A stretch of DNA of 64,000 nucleotides from Heterodontus francisci. Its lineage: Eukaryota. The stretch lies in the NCBI RefSeq assembly GCF_036365525.1, contig NC_090379.1:92489206-92553205 (forward strand), written 5' to 3'. Below, in pieces: positions 315-42,537 of this stretch. Numbering within the stretch: position 1 is the first letter of the stretch; each line of letters starts with the position of its first letter. The notes under the pieces were generated by a model. It worked only from the letters and a program-made list of their open reading frames with translations, had not been told where the DNA came from and did no database searches. A program made the translations under genes and the position numbers.

Positions 315-900
315 ACTCAACACTATCCAGGCCAAAGCAGCCCGCTTGATTGGCACCCTATCCATCACCTTAAGCATTCACTCACCACAGTTGCACCCTG
401 AATGCATTGTGTACGATCTACAAGATGTACTACAGCAACTCACCAAGGCCACTTTAGCAGTACCTTCCAAATCATTGACCTCTACCGCCTAGAAGAACAA
501 AGGCATCAGGCACATGGGAACACCACTGCCTTCAAGTTCCCCTCCAAATCACACACCATCCTGACTTGGAAATATATTGCCGTTCCTCATCGTTGCTGGG
601 TTAAGATCCTGGAACTCCCTCGCTAGCAGAACTGTGGGTGTACCTACATTACATGGACTGCCATGGTTCAAGAAGGCAGCTGCTCACCACCTTCTCAAAG
701 AATGAGCAAATAAATATTATAATAGCAAAATTTGCAGATGCTGGAAATCTGAAATAAAAACAAGAAATGCTGGAAATACTCAGCAGGTCTGGCCGCATCT
801 GTGGAGAGAGAAGCAGAGTTAACGTTTCAGGTCAGTGACCCTTCATCAGAAATAAATACTGGTGTGTGTGATCCCATGAACAAATTATAAAACAAAAAAA
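315..900 (+). mobile_element. 3' end of the second LINE family (same as 17615-20740), interrupted by the element at 717-849
   Basis: Colinear with 20295-20740 (atccag..aaagcagcc.gcttgattggca, ccttctc, atcccatgaa + A-rich tail). Confidence 0.8.
717..849 (-). mobile_element. Short Penelope-like element (family A) with a hammerhead-like core
   Basis: Minus strand begins ctgatgaagggtcactgacctgaaacgttaac; flanked by the direct repeat aaataaata (708-716, 850-858); homologous to 5297-5407, 21941-22165 and 31531-31705. Confidence 0.75.
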
Positions 901-4970: not shown

Positions 4971-5296
4971 GAAATAATGGCTAGTTAAAGGTGAGCACCA
5001 TTATTGGTGTTTAAACAACTCAGTCGACTGTGATGAGGAATACGTACACTATGTGTTGTGAATTACAACAGATTCCTGGATGATTAGTGCTACTCTGCAT
5101 TAGTGTCACAAAGACCTGAACTCGCCATCAACCTCCCCATGTGTAACCAGAAATTTCTGCATTTGTGCTGCAAATACAAATTAAACTTGCTGGAGAAAAT
5201 CAGGGCTGCTATTTAATGGTACAAAGACTTTGGTATTGAGATAATTTTTGTTTCCAATGGCCTTCCACTTCTAAACCAGTTGACAGTTAAATGACC

Positions 5297-5407
5297 TAAA
5301 ATACATAATAAATAAAAACAAAAAGTGCTGGAATATTCAGCAGATCTAGCAGCATCTGTGGAGAGAGAAGCAGAGTTAACATTTCATGTCAGTGACCTTT
5401 CATCAGA
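5297..5407 (-). mobile_element. Short Penelope-like element (family A), degenerate hammerhead core
   Basis: Minus strand tctgatgaaaggtcactgacatgaaatgttaac; perfect 14-bp flanking direct repeat acagttaaatgacc (5283-5296, 5408-5421). Confidence 0.78.
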
Positions 5408-6166
5408 ACAGTTAAATGACCATTGTTTTGCACATGCCACATGAAACACTCATTCAGGATGCAAGTTAAACTGCTATGTTAAATTTATTTCAACTTGGCA
5501 GGAATTAGCTATCTCTCCCCACCCCATACTGCCACCCTTTTCTCCCTCCCCCTCACCCCCCACCATTAACAGGGTCTTTAATTTCTAAATAACCAACAAT
5601 TAACCTGCTGATTTCACAAGTAATGCACGCTTTGAATTGATAGAAAATATCTAGCTTTCATGTGTCGGCAGCAGCTGCCAATAGTTCCTGAATTTTATGA
5701 ATTAAAAAGCAATAATAACCTAAACCCTGGGCAGTAGGCTGATTTATTCATCTGTTTGTGTCATGTTCCATAGGCAAAGCAACTTAGAACTACACATTTT
5801 TTAGCATTAAACTCAGCGATAGACTTGCTTAAATAGCATCCAAGCTGCCACTTCAGAGCTCTGCTGCCCATTTAAATCTTTTTGTTTACTTGGTTATTAA
5901 GGTGATCAATTCTTGGTACCAAATATGCCCCGTTTTCAATTTGCACTTCCAGCAATTTGCAACACAAAATTAATTGAAGCTCAAGCATGAGGGAAGAAAT
6001 GCAACCCATGGCACTCACTGAGATGCCATTCTCCAGCAAATTCTGGGCCATTAATATCATGTAACGGGTGGTCGTTGTTTTAAAATAACGGAATGAAACT
6101 TCACTTGTGACTATTGTTTTTCTTGTCTGCAAGTTTTGACCTTCACATGCATTTCACTTGTTTCAG

Positions 6167-8509: not shown

Positions 8510-8700
8510 TTAGGTTGATAGGTAAATTGGCCATTATAAATTGCCCCTAGTATAGGTAGGTGGTAGGGAAATATAGGGACAGGTGGGGATGTGGTAGGAA
8601 TATGGAATTAGTGTAGGATTAGTATAAATGGGTGGTTGATGGTCGGCACAGACTCGGTGGGCCGAAGGGCCTGTTTCAGTGCTGTATCACTAAACTAAAC
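8510..8700 (+). mobile_element. 5'-truncated HE1/V-SINE
   Basis: Matches the 3' half of 41036-41390; ends gggcctgtttcagtgctgtatcactaaactaaac. Confidence 0.85.
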
Positions 8701-10811: not shown

Positions 10812-11140
10812 CATAGAGAGATACAGCACTGAAACAGGCCTTTCGGCCCACCAAGTCTGTGCCGACCATCAACCACCCATTTATACTAATCCTACATTAA
10901 TCCCATGTCCCCTACCACATCCCCACAATTCTCCTACCATCTACTTCATTTGGGGGAATTTACAATGGCCAATTTTACCTATCAACCTGCAAGTCTTTGG
11001 CTGTGGGAGGAAACCTGAGCACCCGGCGGAAACCCACGCGGTCACAGGGAGAACTTGCAAACTCCACACAGGCAGTACCCAGAACCGAATCTGGGTCGCT
11101 GGAGCTGTGAGGCTGCGGTGCTAACCACTGTGCCGCCCCC
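10812..11140 (-). mobile_element. Full-length tRNA-derived HE1/V-SINE
   Basis: Minus strand head gggcggcacagtggttagcaccgcagcctcacagctccagcgaccc, V-domain gtgtggagtttgcaagttctcc, CR1-like tail. Confidence 0.9.
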
Positions 11141-17614: not shown

Positions 17615-20600
17615 TCGCACAGTGGTTATGTTATTGGACCAGTAATCCAGAAGCTTGGACTAATAATTTGGAGACATGAGTTCAAATCCCACAATGGCAG
17701 TCTGGGAACTTGAATTTAGTTAATTTAGTAAATCTGGAATTAATAGATAGTGTTTGTAATGGTGATCATGAAGCCTTTGGATTGTCGCAAGCACTTAGTT
17801 GCATCAAACAGCTACAATAAGATACACGAAGAATAAATCCAGATGAACCACACGACATCCCCTAAGTATCTGATTTGGATATGACAAATACAACCCTGCA
17901 AAGTCCTCCTCACTACCCTCTGGGAATTGTGCCAAAGAAAAGCTGTCCCACAGGCATGCTGTGCCCATCGGGGCTCAGATAGTAGTGATGTTACTGAGCC
18001 ACTCTTGGTGATGAATGAACATTGAAGTCAGTTACCCAGAGTAAATTCCTAGTATGGGTATAATTCTGTGAGATGATGATTGGCCGAGGTCCCAGACTCC
18101 TTCATTACCATCATGTTCTACCGGCAAGACAGGCTCATCAGAGGTGGCAGCACAATGATATACAGACTGGAGGGAGTGGCCCTGGGAGTCTTCAACATTG
18201 AGTCCTGACACCATAAAGTCTATTGTCTTCAGGCCAAACGTAAGCAAGGAAACCTCCTGTTGATACCACTTGCTGCCCTCCCTCAGCTAATGAATCACTA
18301 CTCCTCCATGTTGAACACCACTTGGAAAAAGTATGAGGGTAGAAAGAGCACAGAATGTACTCTGGTGAGGAACTTCAATATACATTACCTTGAGTGGCTT
18401 GGCCGTATCACTGCTGATCAAGTCTTGAAGGGCCTAGCTGCCAGATTGGGCATGCGGCAGATGGTGAAAGAACTAAAACAATGGGAAATACTTGACTACT
18501 TCCTCGCCAATCTACCTGTTCTAGATGCATTTGTCCATGACATCGTTCTTGTAGAGACAAAGTCCCATCTTGCCACTGAGGACATTCTCCATTGTGTGGT
18601 ATGTTGCCACCACCGTACTCGATGGGATAGTTTCAGAATAGACATAGTAGCTCAGAACTGGGCTCCATGAGGGACGTGGGCCATCAGCAGCAAGAGAATT
18701 GTATCCTACCACAATCTAATCTCGTGGCCTGGCATATCCCTCACTTTACCATTACCGTCAAACCAGACAAGGAACCCTAATCCAATGAGGAATGTAGAAG
18801 AGCATGTCAGGACCAGGCAAACCTAAAAATAATGTACCAACCTGGTGAAGATACAAGACTGAACTACAACATGCATACTAAAGAGCAGAAGCAACATGCT
18901 GTGGACAGAGCAAAGCAATCCCACAACCAACGGCTCTGCAGCCCTGCCACAACCAGTCGTGAATGGTGGTGGATAATTAAAGAACTAACAGGAGGAGGCT
19001 CCTTGAACATTCCCATTCTAAATGTTGGCAGAGCCCAGCACATGAATGCAAAGGCCAAGGCTGAAGCATTTGCAACCATCTTCAGCCAGATGTACCAAGT
19101 GGGCGGCCCATCTCTGCCTTGGCCTGAGTATCCCACTATCACAGATGGTCAATCTTGAGCCAATTTAACTCACTCCATGTGATATCAAGAAACAGCTGAG
19201 CACACTGGATACAGAAAAGGCTATGGGCCCTGATAACAGCTCGACTGTAGTGCTGAAGATCTGTGCTTCAGAACTAGTTGTGCTTCTAGCCAAGCTGTTC
19301 CAGTACAGCTACGACACTGGCATCTACCCAATAATGTGGAAAATTGTCTAGCTATGTCCAGTCCACAAAAAGTGCAACAAATCCAATCCAGCCGATTACC
19401 ATCCCATTAGTCTACTCTTGATCATCAGCAAATTAATGGAAGATGCCCTTGAAGATGTTATCAGGTGGCACTTACTCAGTAATAACCTGTTCACTGATGC
19501 TAGTTTGGATTGTGCTAGGACAACTCGGCTCCAGACCTCATTGCGGCCTTGGTCCAAGCATGGACAAAAGCTGAATTCCAGCGGTGAGGCGAGAGTGGCT
19601 GCCCTTGACATCAAGGCAACATTTTGAGCAAGTGTGGCATCAAGGAGCCTTAATAAAATTGAAGTCAGTTTGAAGCAGAGGAAAACTGTTCACTGGCTGG
19701 AGTCATACCTAGCACAAAGGAAGATGGTGTGGTTGTTGGAGGCCAATCATCTCAGCCCCAGGACACCACTGCAGGAGTTCCTCGGGGCAGTGAGCTACGC
19801 CAAACCATCTTCAGTTGCTTCATCAATGACCTTCCCTCCGTCATAAGGTCAGAAGTCAGGATTTTCACTAACGATTGCACAGTGTTCAGTTCCATTCACA
19901 ACTCTGCAGATAATGAAGCAGTCTGTGTCCACACGCAGCAAAGTCTGGACAATGTTCAGGCTTGGGCTGATAAGTGGCCAGTAGCATTCACGCCACACAA
20001 GTGTCAAGCAATGGCAATCTCCAACAAGAGAGAGTCTAACCACCTCCCCTTGACATTCAACAGCACTACTATTGCTGAATCCCCCACCATCAACATCCTG
20101 GAGATCACCATTGAGCACAAATATAACTGGACCAACCATGTAAATACTGTAGTTACAAGATCAGAGGCTGGGTATTCTACGGTAATTCACCTCCTGACTC
20201 CCCAAAGCCTGTCAACCATCTACAAGGCACAAGTCAGGAATGTGATGGATTACTCCCCACTGGCCTGAATGAGTGCAGCTCCAACAATGCTCATGAAACT
20301 TGACATCATCCAGAACAAAACAGCCTGCTTGATTGGCATCCATCCACCACATTAAACATTCACACCAGCGGTGCACTGTGGCTGCAGTGAGTGCCATCTA
20401 CAAGATGCACCGAGCAAGGCTTGTTCAACAGCACCTTTCAAACTCGTGATGTCTACCGCCTGGAAGAACAAGGCAGTAGACACGTGGGAACAGCACGACC
20501 TGTAAGATCCCTCCAAGTCACACGCCATCTCAACTTGGAACTATATCGTCATTCCTTCATTGTTGCTGGGTTATAATCCTGGAACTCCCTACCTAACAGC

Positions 20601-20740
20601 AATGTGGGAGTACCTATGCCAAAAGGACTGCAGCAGTTCCAGAAGGCGGCTCACCATCACCTTCTCTAGGACAATTAGAAATGGGCAGTAAATGTTGGCC
20701 TTGCCAGCAACACCCACATACCATGAATGATTTAAAAAAG
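17615..20740 (+). mobile_element. Decayed ~3.1-kb non-LTR retrotransposon (CR1/L2-group RT) with a tRNA-like 5' head
   Basis: A/B-box-like head; APE relics (RNFNIHYLEWLG, ILDYFLANLP); RT AGVPRGSELRQTIFSCFINDLP, WADKWPVAFTPHKCQ, LSTIYKAQVR; A-rich tail. Confidence 0.85.
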
Positions 20741-20975: not shown

Positions 20976-21940
20976 TACTACGCATGTTCAAGTGCTAGCT
21001 GTAAGATTCAAGTGGTCTAATTTGTTCACTGCAATCTAGACAATTACTGTATCATATGTAGTTTTAGTTTAAATGCATTATAGCACTTTCTTCTGTATAT
21101 TTTTAATTGTTGTGGCTACAAGTGGTGCTGGACTTAATTGTAGAAATGCTTTATTTTGCTTGTTGTACTCGGAAGGTCTTGTGTGTTAGGGGCCTAATGA
21201 CTAGGAGATGAGAACTTTTGGCTTCGGGCAGTTCAGACCAGGTCTTCTCTGTTGAAGGCTGAGAATTCATTTGGAGGTTTGTTGGAATTTTCCCCAGGGA
21301 TTTCTTGGGGACCAGATCAGAAGGGGAGATATTGGATGACTGTTCAGTTTATTAGCTGAAGTGCTTCAAGATGCATGTTTCTAAGGGAGAAGTGGGAGTT
21401 TGTAAGTGCTTTGAGTTATTTTTGAGTTATTCTTGCAGTCTTCCTTGAGTTGATCTTGTTAAAACTATGGAGCCATCTGACTTTCACCCTACTGTGCAAC
21501 CGCACCAGTGAGCCAAGTGCATCCATTTCTGTAGAACATGCTGTCAAGGAAGTGAAGTTGGCTGGGCAAGGGAGTTCTGACAAATGTTCAGCTGGATCTC
21601 CCCTTGCAGATTTTCATCGAAGTTTACAGGGTGGCTAAGGATCTGGGCATTTTTTTGTTGGCATTGGATGGAAATGTTTTTACAGGGCAACTTGACATAA
21701 TTGTATTATTGCCATGAGTAAAACTAACCAAAATTAAACCTGTTCAATTTCCTATTCTGGTTCCCCATTCACAATCCCACACCACACACGATACCAGACT
21801 CCGTGTTCGCCAACTAAGACTGGAAATTTATCGCGACAGCTCTTGTGGGATACTTATGGCACATCGTGTATACTAATTGATGTGTTCATTACTTTTAACA
21901 TGTCTTCTCATGTTCTATAATAAGCTTTACATCCTCAGGG

Positions 21941-22165
21941 ATAAAAACAAGAAATGCTGGAATCACTCAGCAGGTCTGGCAGCATCTGTGAAAAGAGAAG
22001 CAGAGTTAACGTTTCGGGTCAGTGACCCTTCTTTGGAACCGAAGAAGGGTCACTGACCCGAAACGTTAACTCTGCTTCTCTTTTCACAGATGCTGCCAGA
22101 CCTGCTGAGTGATTCTAGCATTTCTTGTTTTTATTTCAGATTTCCAGCATCCGCAGTATTTTGCT
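21941..22165. mobile_element. Palindromic Penelope-like element (family A): 93-bp arms + 31-nt tail, 15-bp TSD
   Basis: 21941-22033 vs 22042-22134 are reverse complements with one mismatch; TSD tttacatcctcaggg at 21926-21940 and 22166-22180; centre carries ccgaagaagggtcactgacccgaaacgttaac. Confidence 0.9.
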
Positions 22166-23014
22166 TTTACATCCTCAGGGGTTCACCAATAACTAACCTA
22201 GTGCATATCCTCTTGTAGGTTAAGATTATTTTCTAATTTTGAATTCTCTATACAGAATAGCAGGTACATTGAAAAATTAGGGAATTTGAATGTAACTGAG
22301 GAAATGTCGTAATTAGAGAAAAAGATGTATTGCATCCAGAAATCTTTGTGATTGATGTTGAATTTTGTTTCATAGCAGACATGAATTAGTGATTACCTTT
22401 CTATTCCTAATTGTTTTACGTTAGGATTCTTGTCTTTTAAAGAGGTTTTGGATGATGTCAAAGCTAATACTTGGGGGAGGGGGGTGCTGTGTGTTGCTTG
22501 GGCAGTGAAGGTAGAAGAATTGAGAGATTTATGAGTTTGGCATGTGGAGCAAAATACTGAAGTAAGGCAGCGAGGAAGCTTCAGCGGTACCACACTGAAC
22601 ACCTTTGATTTAAATCCAGAGTGAAAGAGTAGACTTGACTGGTATTTTAACTGTATTTTCTTTAATTGTGTTTTATTATCTGTTTGCCAGTGTGCTATAT
22701 TTCTGAATTTGAGGATAATGTGACTACTTACCCTATCAGATGAACTTCTGTTTAATCTCTTGTACAAATCTGCAATCAATTAGTTGTGGTATAAAAATCA
22801 CGATTGCTCAACAAACATAGTGTTCACATGTCTTAATCGGGATTGATTTTTCTATAGAGACATTGGTTGCTTGTTTGAAGCAGATAGGTTTGTAGTGCAT
22901 CTCTGCATAACATAACATAAACACATGGCAGAGGTAAATACTCTAATAATCAAAATTTCTGCAGGTGAGTAGTTTACTAGGATATGTTTTGTAACCCCTG
23001 TGTTCTTCTTGTAG

Positions 23015-23228
23015 CTCCTTGCTCCGTTATGGAGGAAAACTTCCCATGCAGAGTGCCATGAGTGTCCGCTTCAATAGTAGTGGGACCCAGCTGTTGGCAC
23101 TGCGGCGTCGCCTGCCTCCAGTATTATATGACATTCACTCGCCACAGTCTGTGTTTGAGTTTGATAACCAAGGATATTTCAATTCCTGCACTATGAAGAG
23201 CTGTTGCTTTGCAGGAGACCGTGATCAA
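23015..23228 (+). CDS. DCAF5: DCAF5 exon (likely 6), 214 nt: SLLRYGGKLPMQSAMSVRFNSSGTQLLALRRRLPPVLYDIHSPQSVFEFDNQGYFNSCTMKSCCFAGDRDQ
   Basis: ttcttcttgtAG acceptor, GTAAGT donor at 23229; highly characteristic DCAF5 peptide; overlaps ORF 23019..23315. Confidence 0.97.
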
Positions 23229-31530: not shown

Positions 31531-31705
31531 CAAAAACAGAAAGTGTTTGAAATACTCAGCAGGCCAAGCAGTAATTGTGGAGAGAAAAAGCAGAGTTAAC
31601 ATTTGAACAAATTTTCTCTCCACAGATGCTGCCTGATCTGCTGAGTACTTCCAACATATTCTCTTTTTGTTTCAGATTTACAGCATCTGCAGTATTTGGC
31701 TTTTG
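31531..31705. mobile_element. Older palindromic family A element with its centre deleted
   Basis: Arms actcagcagg...tgtggagagaaaa / ttttctctccaca...ctgctgagta plus the same tail; degenerate TSD tacctca.ttgga (31516, 31706). Confidence 0.75.
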
Positions 31706-37058: not shown

Positions 37059-37898
37059 AGTGATTCAAACAGGAAGTGCCAGTCACCAAAGCACCAAGGA
37101 AATTTTGCATGGGATTGCTGGGGTAAGGTTCCATGGTTGACTGTGTTCTTTTGGTAATTCACCCAAGAGGCTATTCTTGGATTGATTGATGCTAGGTGAA
37201 AATTAATGCAGAGAAATCTGAGGTGTAGGTTTTGGGGGGAGGAAGAAGTAGTAGATCAAATATAGGCTGCATGGCACAACCTTTTAAAAGGAATAGACAT
37301 GCACAACTTAAAAGTTCAGATCTTTAAAAGTGGATATGCAAATTAAAGTTGTCTTTAAAAAAAATTTCTTAGAATCCTAGTTTTTAGAAATAGGGATGTA
37401 GAGTACAATACGTTTTATATGTTTTATTAAAAACAAGTAAAACAAATTAATTTTCAACAATCAATAATCTCTCCAAGATTCTATTAATTGAACCTTTCCT
37501 TGTATGTGTTGGTTCATAGTTTAAATCTATCTTTTTAAATACTATAATTTTAGTATGAATGTTAAGTCAGAGAACTCTTTGTCCAAATGTGTTTTCTCGT
37601 TGGTTTGTTTTCTGGAATTACATTCGAAATAAAATAGATTATTTGCATTTCAGCTGTCTAATCTAAACATGTGGGGACTCTTTTTGCCATTCCATTCCCC
37701 CACCCAGGTTAGTGATTCATGCTGAGGTGAGGTTCCATGGTTGACTGTGTTCCTTTGGCAACTCATCCAAGAGGCTATTCTTGGATCGATTGATGCTAGG
37801 TGAAAATTAATGCAGAGAAATCTGAGGTGAAAGTTTTTTGGGGGGAGGAAGAAGTAGTAGATCAAATATAGGCTGCAAAGCACAACTTTTTAAAAGGA
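37059..37898 (+). repeat. Local direct duplication, ~180-bp unit (about 37117-37291 and 37720-37898)
   Basis: Shared aggttccatggttgactgtgttc...ccaagaggctattcttggat...gaggaagaagtagtagatcaaatataggctgca. Confidence 0.9.
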
Positions 37899-40440: not shown

Positions 40441-40740
40441 TTAGAGATACAGCACTGAAACAGGCCCTTCGGCCCACTGAGTCTGTGCCGACCAACAACC
40501 ACCCATTTATTCTAACCCTACAGTAATCCCATATTCCCTACCACCTACACTACGGGCAATTTACAATGGCTAATTTACCTACCACCTGCAAGTCTTTGGA
40601 TGTGGGAGGTAACCGGAGCACCCGGTGAAAACCCACGCAGTCACAGGGAGAACTTGCAAACTCCACACAAGCAGTACCCAGAATTGAACCCGGGTCCCTG
40701 GAGCTGTGAGGCTGCGGTGCTAACCACTGCGCCACTGTGC
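40441..40740 (-). mobile_element. HE1/V-SINE
   Basis: Minus strand gcacagtggcgcagtggttagcacc...cccgggttcaattctggg (A and B boxes), V domain, CR1-like tail. Confidence 0.92.
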
Positions 40741-41035
40741 ACGTATGTTACAGAGTATGCAGTCTTGGTTAGGTGTCGGACAGATGTGTGCTTAATAACA
40801 TGAATATTTGCTGAAATAGCCTGTTGTGTTTCAAAGTTGCTTTCCATAATTTTAAACCAAGCGATCGGCTTCATAGTTCACTCATGGCCTGCAGATTATG
40901 GTACCCGGTGAAATCTAATTTCTGGATTCCTTTCTAACACAACCATCCTTTGTAAGATACCATGAAACTCTAGCCAAATTTTTCATCCCAGACTCATGGA
41001 AATGCAGACTTATTAATGTGAATATTCTCCAATTT

Positions 41036-41390
41036 GGGGCAGCACAGTGGCGTTGGGGCGGCGCAGTGGTTAGCACTGCAGCCTCACAACTCCAGCGACC
41101 CGGGTTCGGTTCGGTTCTGGGTACTGCCTGTGCGGAGTTTGCAAGTTCTCCCTGTTACCGCGTGGATTTCCGCCGGGTGCTCCTGTTTCCTCCCACAGCC
41201 AAAGATGTGCAGGTTGATAGGTAAATTGGCCTTTGTAAATTGCCCCTAGTTGTAGGTAGGTGGTAGGAGAATGGTGGGGATGTGCTAGGGGATATGCGAT
41301 TAATGTAGGATTAGTATAAATGGGTGGCTGTTGGTCGGCACAGACCCGATGGGCCGAAGGGCCTGTTTCAGTGCTGTCTCTCTCTCTCTC
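41036..41390 (+). mobile_element. HE1/V-SINE
   Basis: ggcgcagtggttagcactgcagcctcac...cccgggttcg, V domain, tail gggccgaagggcctgtttcagtgctgt(ct)n. Confidence 0.92.
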
Positions 41391-42537
41391 TTTTTGATAA
41401 ATAAGACTCCCTACTTGCCATTACCTGGAGCTTCACTGGTTACTTTGTAACATGATATTATGTAGTTATATTTCAACTTGTCTATGATTGAAAAAGTTTG
41501 TGTATGTGTTCTCTCAGCCCACACTTTATTCCCAGCTAATTGAAAGCTAGCCAACTGTACCAACTTTTATTCACTCCACCTCCACTAATGTCCGGGCTAT
41601 GATTTTTACATTGCGTCTTTTAACATAAAATACAATGCTATTGCTGCCTGTTTTTTGCTGCAGTGCACAGAAACATGGGATTGCAGGAATATCATAAATT
41701 TGAGTCTGATTACCAATTTTTTAATGTGACACAGAGCCATAGCAGCGAGGCACACAGACTGATTCAATTGTACCTATGTTGCACAGTATGCAATCTTGAT
41801 TAGGTGCTGGAATTTCAGGGAGAGCTGTTGCCAGGCTGCTGTTACCAGCACTATAAGGTTGAGGGAAAGTCTGAGAACAGATCTCTTGCCTTTCCCCTTT
41901 CTTGACCACAGGAAGTACACAGCAGAGGAGAGACTGTGACACTGCATTAGGTTGACAGTGAAACCACTTTAACCATAAGGTTGCTAGCTGGTTAAGGGAA
42001 ACATCTTTGATCAAAAATTATGTTTGAGCACTTCAACAGTGCTGTTTGCTCATTTTCCTCCTGTTCCCTGCTTCTCCATTTATATTCATGTCGCTGTCTC
42101 TCACTCCTTCTTGTATTTTTTAATTCATCTTGAAGATGGCCACAACTTTGTGTTTTAGGGACTGAAAGCCAGTTTAAAAGTAAATCTTTCCAGCCAGTCA
42201 AAAGCCCATCCCTTGGAAATAGGGCAATTTGAGTTGCAGTGATTGCACTTAGTCTCCACTATCCCAGAAATATAGGGACTAAAACACTCAAATTGGTATC
42301 GGCCAGCCTTTAGGAATTGACTATTTGGTACAAACTAGACTGAAAATTAAAGGTGAATCATGTATATTGTGGTACTCCATTCACAAAATAATATATTAGA
42401 ACAAAAGCATAATACTGCAGATCCCAGAAGTCTGAAATAAAAACAGAAAATACAAAAACAAGAAATTACATGAAGAGAAACAGGAAATACACAACAGATC
42501 AATAATATATTTTTAGCTGCGTTTGCTGGCAATGCAA

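Follow-up and report, generated by a model that had tools for sequence, protein, structure and literature searches.

A fold-back insert in a DCAF5 intron of Heterodontus francisci, probably a doubly truncated insertion of a Penelope-like element

The fold-back insert at 21926-22180 of the window, the whole 64,000-nt stretch of Heterodontus francisci DNA analysed here, very probably comprises two 5'-truncated 3' ends of an abundant longer repeat (family A) joined head-to-head, the repeat likely being an EN+ Penelope-like element (PLE), the two copies likely having arrived in one event, and the hammerhead motifs that they carry being predicted to be inactive. The anatomy of the insert, the two 3' ends of the family, the variable joints between copies, the continuation of the repeat upstream and the damage to the hammerhead cores are established directly from the letters and from sequencing reads.

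Anatomy and genomic position of the insert

A preliminary description of this DNA had reported 93-bp arms with one mismatch, a one-sided tail of 31 nt and an exact 15-nt target-site duplication (TSD), and all of these features were recovered at the following positions.

21926-21940, plus strand: left TSD, 15 nt; with its flank inside a read-derived contig (21400-21964, 0 differences)
21941-22033 and 22042-22134: left and right arms, 93 nt each, with 1 mismatch (21959 G versus 22116 T)
21941-22039, minus strand: inverted, tail-less, 5'-truncated copy of the family A 3' end, its last base common to the sense copy
22039-22134, plus strand: sense 5'-truncated copy, beginning at core base C3
22135-22169, plus strand: one-sided tail, 31 nt (22135-22165) plus 4 nt common to the right duplication
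22166-22180, plus strand: right TSD, 15 nt, its first 4 nt ambiguous with the tail; inside a read-derived contig (22146-22900, 0 differences)
23015-23228, plus strand: DCAF5 coding exon, 71 aa, E 5.1e-39 to 8TL6_B

The duplication, TTTACATCCTCAGGG, is exact over 15 nt and occurs only twice within the window; no direct repeat other than this one was found in 21500-22600. The match of family A reads extends as far as 22169, which makes the first 4 letters of the TSD element sequence as well and gives a tail of 31-35 nt and a TSD of 11-15 nt. The letters between the 93-nt arms, TGGAACCG, had been described as an 8-nt centre. They are present as described, but they are not a spacer: pairing extends the arms to 96 nt (2 mismatches) and leaves a loop of 2 nt, and the centre is thus the head-to-head joint of two truncated copies that share C22039. 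These copies measure 99 and 131 nt, with no ORF between them. As RNA, the insert has a predicted folding energy of -192.7 kcal/mol (z -28), and none of 200 shuffled sequences was equally stable. The stability of the sense copy on its own is unremarkable (z -0.58), as is that of the family A copy at 5310 (z 0.55).

The insert is intronic, lying in the DCAF5 intron that precedes the exon at 23015-23228, with its sense copy in gene orientation. This exon, which had been placed about 850 nt downstream, is confirmed by its match to 8TL6_B and begins about 835 nt from the insert. Within the DCAF5 pre-mRNA, the 96-bp hairpin is a predicted substrate for double-stranded RNA editing. At 22122-22139, the end of the arm and the start of the tail form a pyrimidine run ending in TTCAG, which resembles a splice acceptor in the sense orientation of DCAF5; most of the run is predicted to be paired within the hairpin.

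Family A in sequencing reads

Reads and contigs from four of 24 runs (X1, X5, X6 and X21) were compared with 21400-22900; runs X7-X20, with word shares of 0.06-0.10, were left out of the analysis. Run X1 comprises contigs, possibly from the source sample, and run X21 comprises raw capture reads from another sample bearing the same species label. Family A is very abundant: the depth of X21, which yields no copy number, was about 20,800 on the tail bin versus at most 0.41 on the flank bins. Loose ends, whose agreement is about 0.4, were counted in X21 at 21941 (3196 reads), 22168 (3926 reads) and 22169 (10496 reads). The ends at 21941 and at 22167-22169, together with the copies at 720 and 5310 listed below, define two 3' ends for the family, one with the tail and one without it.

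In the upstream direction, 5103 X21 reads run on past 22039 (agreement 0.74), and a continuation beyond the core, of which 30 letters are visible, is also found in 12 X5 contigs and one X6 contig; the element in the insert is therefore a truncated piece of a longer repeat. Among the rows listed (15 of 243 joints and 12 of 186 between-letter rows), the left arms of fold-backs end at 21963, 21967, 21970, 21987, 21989, 21995, 21996 and 21997. Joints landing at 22085-22088 were disregarded, since differences at 22082 and 22084 probably account for them through the alignment.

Two further points emerged from the contigs. A joint from 22168 to 21941, present in 12 X1 contigs, connects the tail end to the 3' end of an arm and suggests that tail-to-tail arrangements exist too. 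Run X6 (organism C) contains, as its sole family A sequence, a 398-nt contig of the young subfamily (2 differences over 131 nt); this contig may represent contamination, diet or transfer.

Near-perfect palindromes can arise in long-read data, and the central joint is spanned by none of the contigs listed for runs X1, X5 and X6. An assembly or chimeric-read artefact, a concern raised in the preliminary description, is nevertheless barely conceivable. Both outer junctions lie in read-derived X1 contigs (21400-21964 and 22146-22900) with 0 differences, and 0.89 of 72 words are present in each of four runs from one sample. Moreover, an artefact would yield neither a TSD, nor a one-sided tail, nor the two differences carried by the arms, and other family A fold-backs exist. 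An empty-site joint is absent from the 15 joints listed of 243, a comparison in which X21 flank depth is at most 0.41 and contigs drop variants; no piece crosses the insertion site in X5 or X6. The earlier suggestion that the insertion might be polymorphic therefore finds no support in these reads.

Other family A copies in the window

Besides the fold-back insert, the window contains four copies or remnants of family A.

720-849, minus strand: older single-arm copy with tail; CUGAUGA core; 9-nt duplication (708-716 and 850-858)
5310-5407, minus strand: older single-arm copy without tail; CUGAUGA core; 14-nt duplication (5283-5296 and 5408-5421)
31531-31705, no strand assigned: old fold-back copy with tail; diverged duplication with 7 exact nt
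42403-42451, minus strand: tail with a short arm stub; no convincing duplication

Exact TSDs, of 15, 14 and 9 nt, accompany three of the five family A insertions. The single-arm copies, the variable length of the duplications and the differing joints argue that the palindrome is not itself the mobile unit. The preliminary view of the insert as a recently active, non-coding, ribozyme-bearing retroelement thus holds in part: the insert is young and PLE-like, but the fold-back is not what moves, and its motifs are damaged. The same architecture was said to recur, in older form, at 31531-31705; this copy does belong to family A and has the tail and a diverged duplication, but its joint is a different one and its core has been lost.

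These copies also bear on whether the insert could be a MITE of a DNA transposon, which would likewise be short and non-coding, with long inverted arms and a very high copy number (compare the X21 tail bin at about 20,800). Such an origin is extremely unlikely, as the ends are asymmetric, the TSDs measure 15, 14 and 9 nt, single-arm copies occur, the joints vary and the repeat continues upstream. The preliminary description had associated a MITE with TSDs of fixed length, and this is contradicted by the variable TSDs and the single-arm copies.

Several details of these copies were recorded. In the old fold-back, AAC (31612-31615), the base after the predicted cleavage site, may be where the sense arm begins, although this start is uncertain, the next 7 nt being too diverged. 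The older copy (708-858 with its duplication) lies inside the AATAAA region located at the 3' end of another repeat (314-696, matching 20297-20666). Filler bases are present at two copies: a few at the tail end of 720-849, and about 13 at 5310.

Family A had been described as distinct from a second fold-back family, B, and this distinction is upheld. The hammerhead-like motif of family B lies ~90 nt from its pivot, unlike that of family A. The family B element (1884-2201) has 139-nt arms that are 92% complementary, a short one-sided extension and a hammerhead-like motif at 2132-2160. Other repeats in the window include nested inverted segments at 40443-41383 (87-91% complementary), which look like a dispersed repeat present twice in opposite orientation, with further copies at 8512-8691 and 10815-11139, and a direct repeat of 177 nt at 37116-37898 (92% identical, spacing about 600 nt).

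Hammerhead motifs

The motifs flanking the joint had been read as back-to-back hammerheads. The layout is indeed that of minimal hammerheads, but each motif is damaged, and their position on opposite strands makes a cis dimer impossible.

22005-22039, minus strand: minimal hammerhead remnant; core CCAAAGA (U4C and G5A), extra A, 5-bp stem II
22039-22070, plus strand: minimal hammerhead remnant; core CCGAAGA (U4C); 5' strand of stem I absent, 0 bp

The minus-strand motif has the ACGU palindrome and a GUU triplet, and its stem I consists of 3 Watson-Crick pairs and 1 G-U pair, partly borrowed from the other arm. Features typical of PLE minimal hammerheads are present, namely the extra base at 9/10.1, G10.1-C11.1, the palindromic 15.2-16.2 and an NUH triplet. 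A helix I of 4-5 bp was found on neither arm of the insert; long family copies offer AGUU/AACU for it. A relaxed hammerhead descriptor that included the NUH triplet matched at 22039 (plus), 22036 (minus) and 849 (minus), all within family A, and gave 0 matches in each of 20 shuffled windows. Rfam returned no match at gathering score, and the 8 matches at E<=5 included no hammerhead family, a result that neither supports nor excludes a minimal motif.

The departures from the hammerhead core were compared with the reads and with the other copies. Of 6624 X21 reads covering base 22034, 6023 have C, which makes the G5 form the majority; G5A in the minus-strand motif is accordingly a minority change, likely a private change at a CpG. 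The CCGA (U4C) core, with CAGTT upstream, is also present in one X6 contig, and U4C is likely a subfamily trait. The older copies at 720 and 5310 have a CUGAUGA core, which fits CUGANGA, whereas the cores of the insert (CCGAAGA and CCAAAGA) do not. G5 is essential in hammerhead ribozymes. The predicted pairing probability of stem II is 0.97 in the isolated motif versus about 5e-18 in the whole insert on either strand, and both motifs of the insert are predicted to be inactive, buried within the hairpin.

These properties make it very unlikely that the locus is a working, retrozyme-like ribozyme element that cleaves itself or gives rise to circular RNA. The motif layout fits minimal hammerheads, and U4C, which lowers activity in vitro, is tolerated by a viroid, whose infectivity was kept in vivo (PMC3088659, excerpts). 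However, the motifs stand on opposite strands rather than in tandem, stem I of the plus-strand motif amounts to 0 bp, the minus-strand motif carries G5A, and both are predicted to be sequestered. By definition, furthermore, retrozymes consist of units in tandem whose motifs are complete (10.64898/2026.07.22.740005, excerpts).

Age of the insert

The exact TSD, the identity of the arms and the retention of CpG indicate from the letters that the insert is young within family A, and the youth claimed for it earlier is upheld in this relative sense. Its arms are identical at 92 of 93 positions, versus 79-86 in comparison with older copies, and arm plus tail contain 4 CpG, versus 2 and 0 in two older copies. 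Each arm carries one change that is in the minority among X21 reads (22034 and 22116). If both changes arose after insertion, 2 in 230 nt would correspond, at the epaulette shark mutation rate of 7e-10 per generation (PMC10587355, excerpts), to about 1.2e7 generations (95% 1.5e6-4.5e7), a loose estimate in view of CpG decay, reverse-transcription error and conversion between arms. This age does not favour a segregating insertion.

Probable origin as a Penelope-like insertion

The insert is very likely a doubly truncated EN+ PLE insertion, an assignment made by structure rather than by the defining RT and GIY-YIG ORF. Five structural features are present, among them an inverted 5'-truncated copy joined head-to-head, the optional tail of 30-40 nt at one end, a TSD of variable length and variable 5' truncation of a longer element. 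The preliminary description had invoked inverted repeats with a short 3' tail as hallmarks of Penelope-like insertions, and the comparison was apt, the anatomy being that of the published insertion pattern. Previous studies of PLE insertions describe an inverted pLTR, a 31-bp one-sided tail, an 8-10 bp TSD and head-to-head palindromic joints (PMC3846280, excerpts), as well as an inverted 5'-truncated copy with a 30-40 bp tail (PMC8557442, excerpts); this anatomy is likewise supported by PMC2377424 (excerpts). Purified PAc cuts and extends both strands, with two reverse-transcription start sites that bound the tail, and it copies uncleaved RNA (PMC11167929).

We infer the enzyme and the order of priming, as well as the inactivity of the motifs. 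By analogy with anole PAc, the GIY-YIG nuclease of the element would nick both strands 11-15 nt apart, and each 3' end would prime reverse transcription of the sense RNA. Bottom-strand priming would occur at the tail end, where 4 nt match, and top-strand priming at an internal start 31-35 nt upstream of the tail end. Synthesis of both cDNAs would end where the hammerhead core begins, at its 5' edge, and the two would then be joined via one shared base, C22039, with fill-in producing the TSD. Against this model, PAc prefers an AT-rich site, which the right-hand edge of the target here (GGG/GTT) is not, and PAc is reported to prime without homology, whereas 4 nt are common to the tail end and the target of the insert. 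In addition, two cDNAs made from the same stretch of RNA would need either two RNAs or displacement. For head-to-head repeats, PMC3846280 (excerpts) favours self-priming on an antisense template.

A pattern scan of the six frames of the window found no GIY-YIG pattern, and exact-pattern scans for family A gave 0 matches in viral, metagenome and prokaryote collections. A 41-aa open frame at 22057-22179, covering arm and tail, was considered as the start of an ORF and rejected: one of nine candidates among longer proteins matched, and this sole match was a host RNF14 model rather than a PLE protein. In this NCBI RNF14 isoform model of Heterodontus francisci, residues 2-36 are identical to the family A arm and tail at 32 of 35 positions. 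The N-terminus of the model may reflect exonisation or a gene-model artefact. Since a Heterodontus francisci model carries family A sequence, the family occurs in sharks.

Start of the short copies at the hammerhead core

Turning to the 5' ends of the copies, the short copies could have been templated by a discrete non-coding RNA of ~130 nt that starts at the TT before the core and depends on a PLE for mobilisation in trans. Such an RNA would be spliced at the upstream CAG, or would start from an initiator there, and would represent a non-autonomous derivative, close to the view taken in the preliminary description. This reading is compatible with a PLE origin, and we regard it as possible but unlikely. 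All four core-bearing arms in the window, from three of the five insertions, start 0-3 nt before C3, a clustering whose chance is 0.009-0.085 if starts are uniform over 200-60 nt. Among the between-letter rows listed (12 of 186), five of eight joints landing at 22039-22044 start at the T or TT that precedes C3, and none of the eight includes the upstream AG. The upstream sequence in X21, X5 and X6 reads CTAAY, 9 nt, CAG/TT in both subfamilies, an arrangement reminiscent of either a branch point with an acceptor or an initiator. The intron of D. virilis Penelope reaches as far as the 5' end of helix I (PMC4209133, excerpts), and most transcripts of that element are spliced (PMC2377424, excerpts).

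Several observations argue against a discrete RNA. Long copies are common, with 5103 X21 reads continuing past 22039 versus 6624 through 22034, and no pile-up of molecule starts or ends was flagged in these DNA runs. The rows listed are a selected minority, and in family B the pivot and the hammerhead-like motif are about 90 nt apart. Finally, the same accumulation of ends would be expected if reverse transcription paused at a motif that is folded or bound by protein.

A fuller scheme can be drawn from this reading, and we offer it just as tentatively. The CAG/TT acceptor or initiator would set the 5' end of the RNA, strip most of stem I and so disarm the ribozyme; the disarmed ~130-nt RNA would preferentially be copied by two-site priming into single-arm and fold-back inserts, with the young, spreading subfamily doing so from a U4C core. 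If this is true, the fold-backs would document, across the genome, a switch in RNA processing during the PLE life cycle. Should the accumulation of 5' ends at a splice or start site hold, it would tie together intron, ribozyme and truncation. Our preferred reading is still the doubly truncated insertion of a longer PLE.

Comparison with known systems

The insert is mostly ordinary: its insertion pattern has already been published, and it provides one more clean example of known PLE anatomy. Literature searches, whose scope did not extend to Lunse et al. 2017, found no published description of family A. The canonical EN+ PLE unit (PMC3846280 and PMC8557442, excerpts) has the same inverted 5'-truncated copy, 31-nt one-sided tail, variable TSD and palindromic joint. 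It differs from the insert in that the copies here are of 99 and 131 nt with no ORF between them, and in that the TSD is 11-15 nt rather than 8-10 bp.

Further parallels come from PAc (Poseidon, Anolis carolinensis; PMC11167929), in which two 3' ends bound the tail ~90-130 nt downstream of the hammerhead, as in family A, and in which uncleaved RNA is the copied form, which we count as a likeness to the insert. The PAc ORF begins at stem II, whereas the same frame in the insert stops at once. PAc also prefers AT-rich cuts and primes without homology, whereas the tail end of the insert shares 4 nt with its target.

The motifs resemble the PLE minimal type I hammerheads (PMC4209133, excerpts) in the extra base at 9/10.1, G10.1-C11.1 and the palindromic CG at 15.2-16.2; the short helix I of that class is matched in long family A copies. 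They differ in the U4C of the young subfamily and, within the insert, in the loss of stem I on one arm and G5A on the other. One supplement file of PMC4209133 has no entry for shark, Callorhinchus, Squalus or Leucoraja. Non-LTR retrozymes (Li et al., 10.64898/2026.07.22.740005, excerpts) are likewise non-coding, hammerhead-bearing and pLTR-derived, and are reported in one chondrichthyan; these are head-to-tail tandems with two complete motifs, whereas the insert is an inverted pair with damaged motifs. In a family this abundant, with TSDs so sharply defined, counts of priming sites, stop sites and joints can be made genome-wide, and such counts bear on two unsettled points of PLE biology, how head-to-head repeats are built and what purpose the hammerheads serve.
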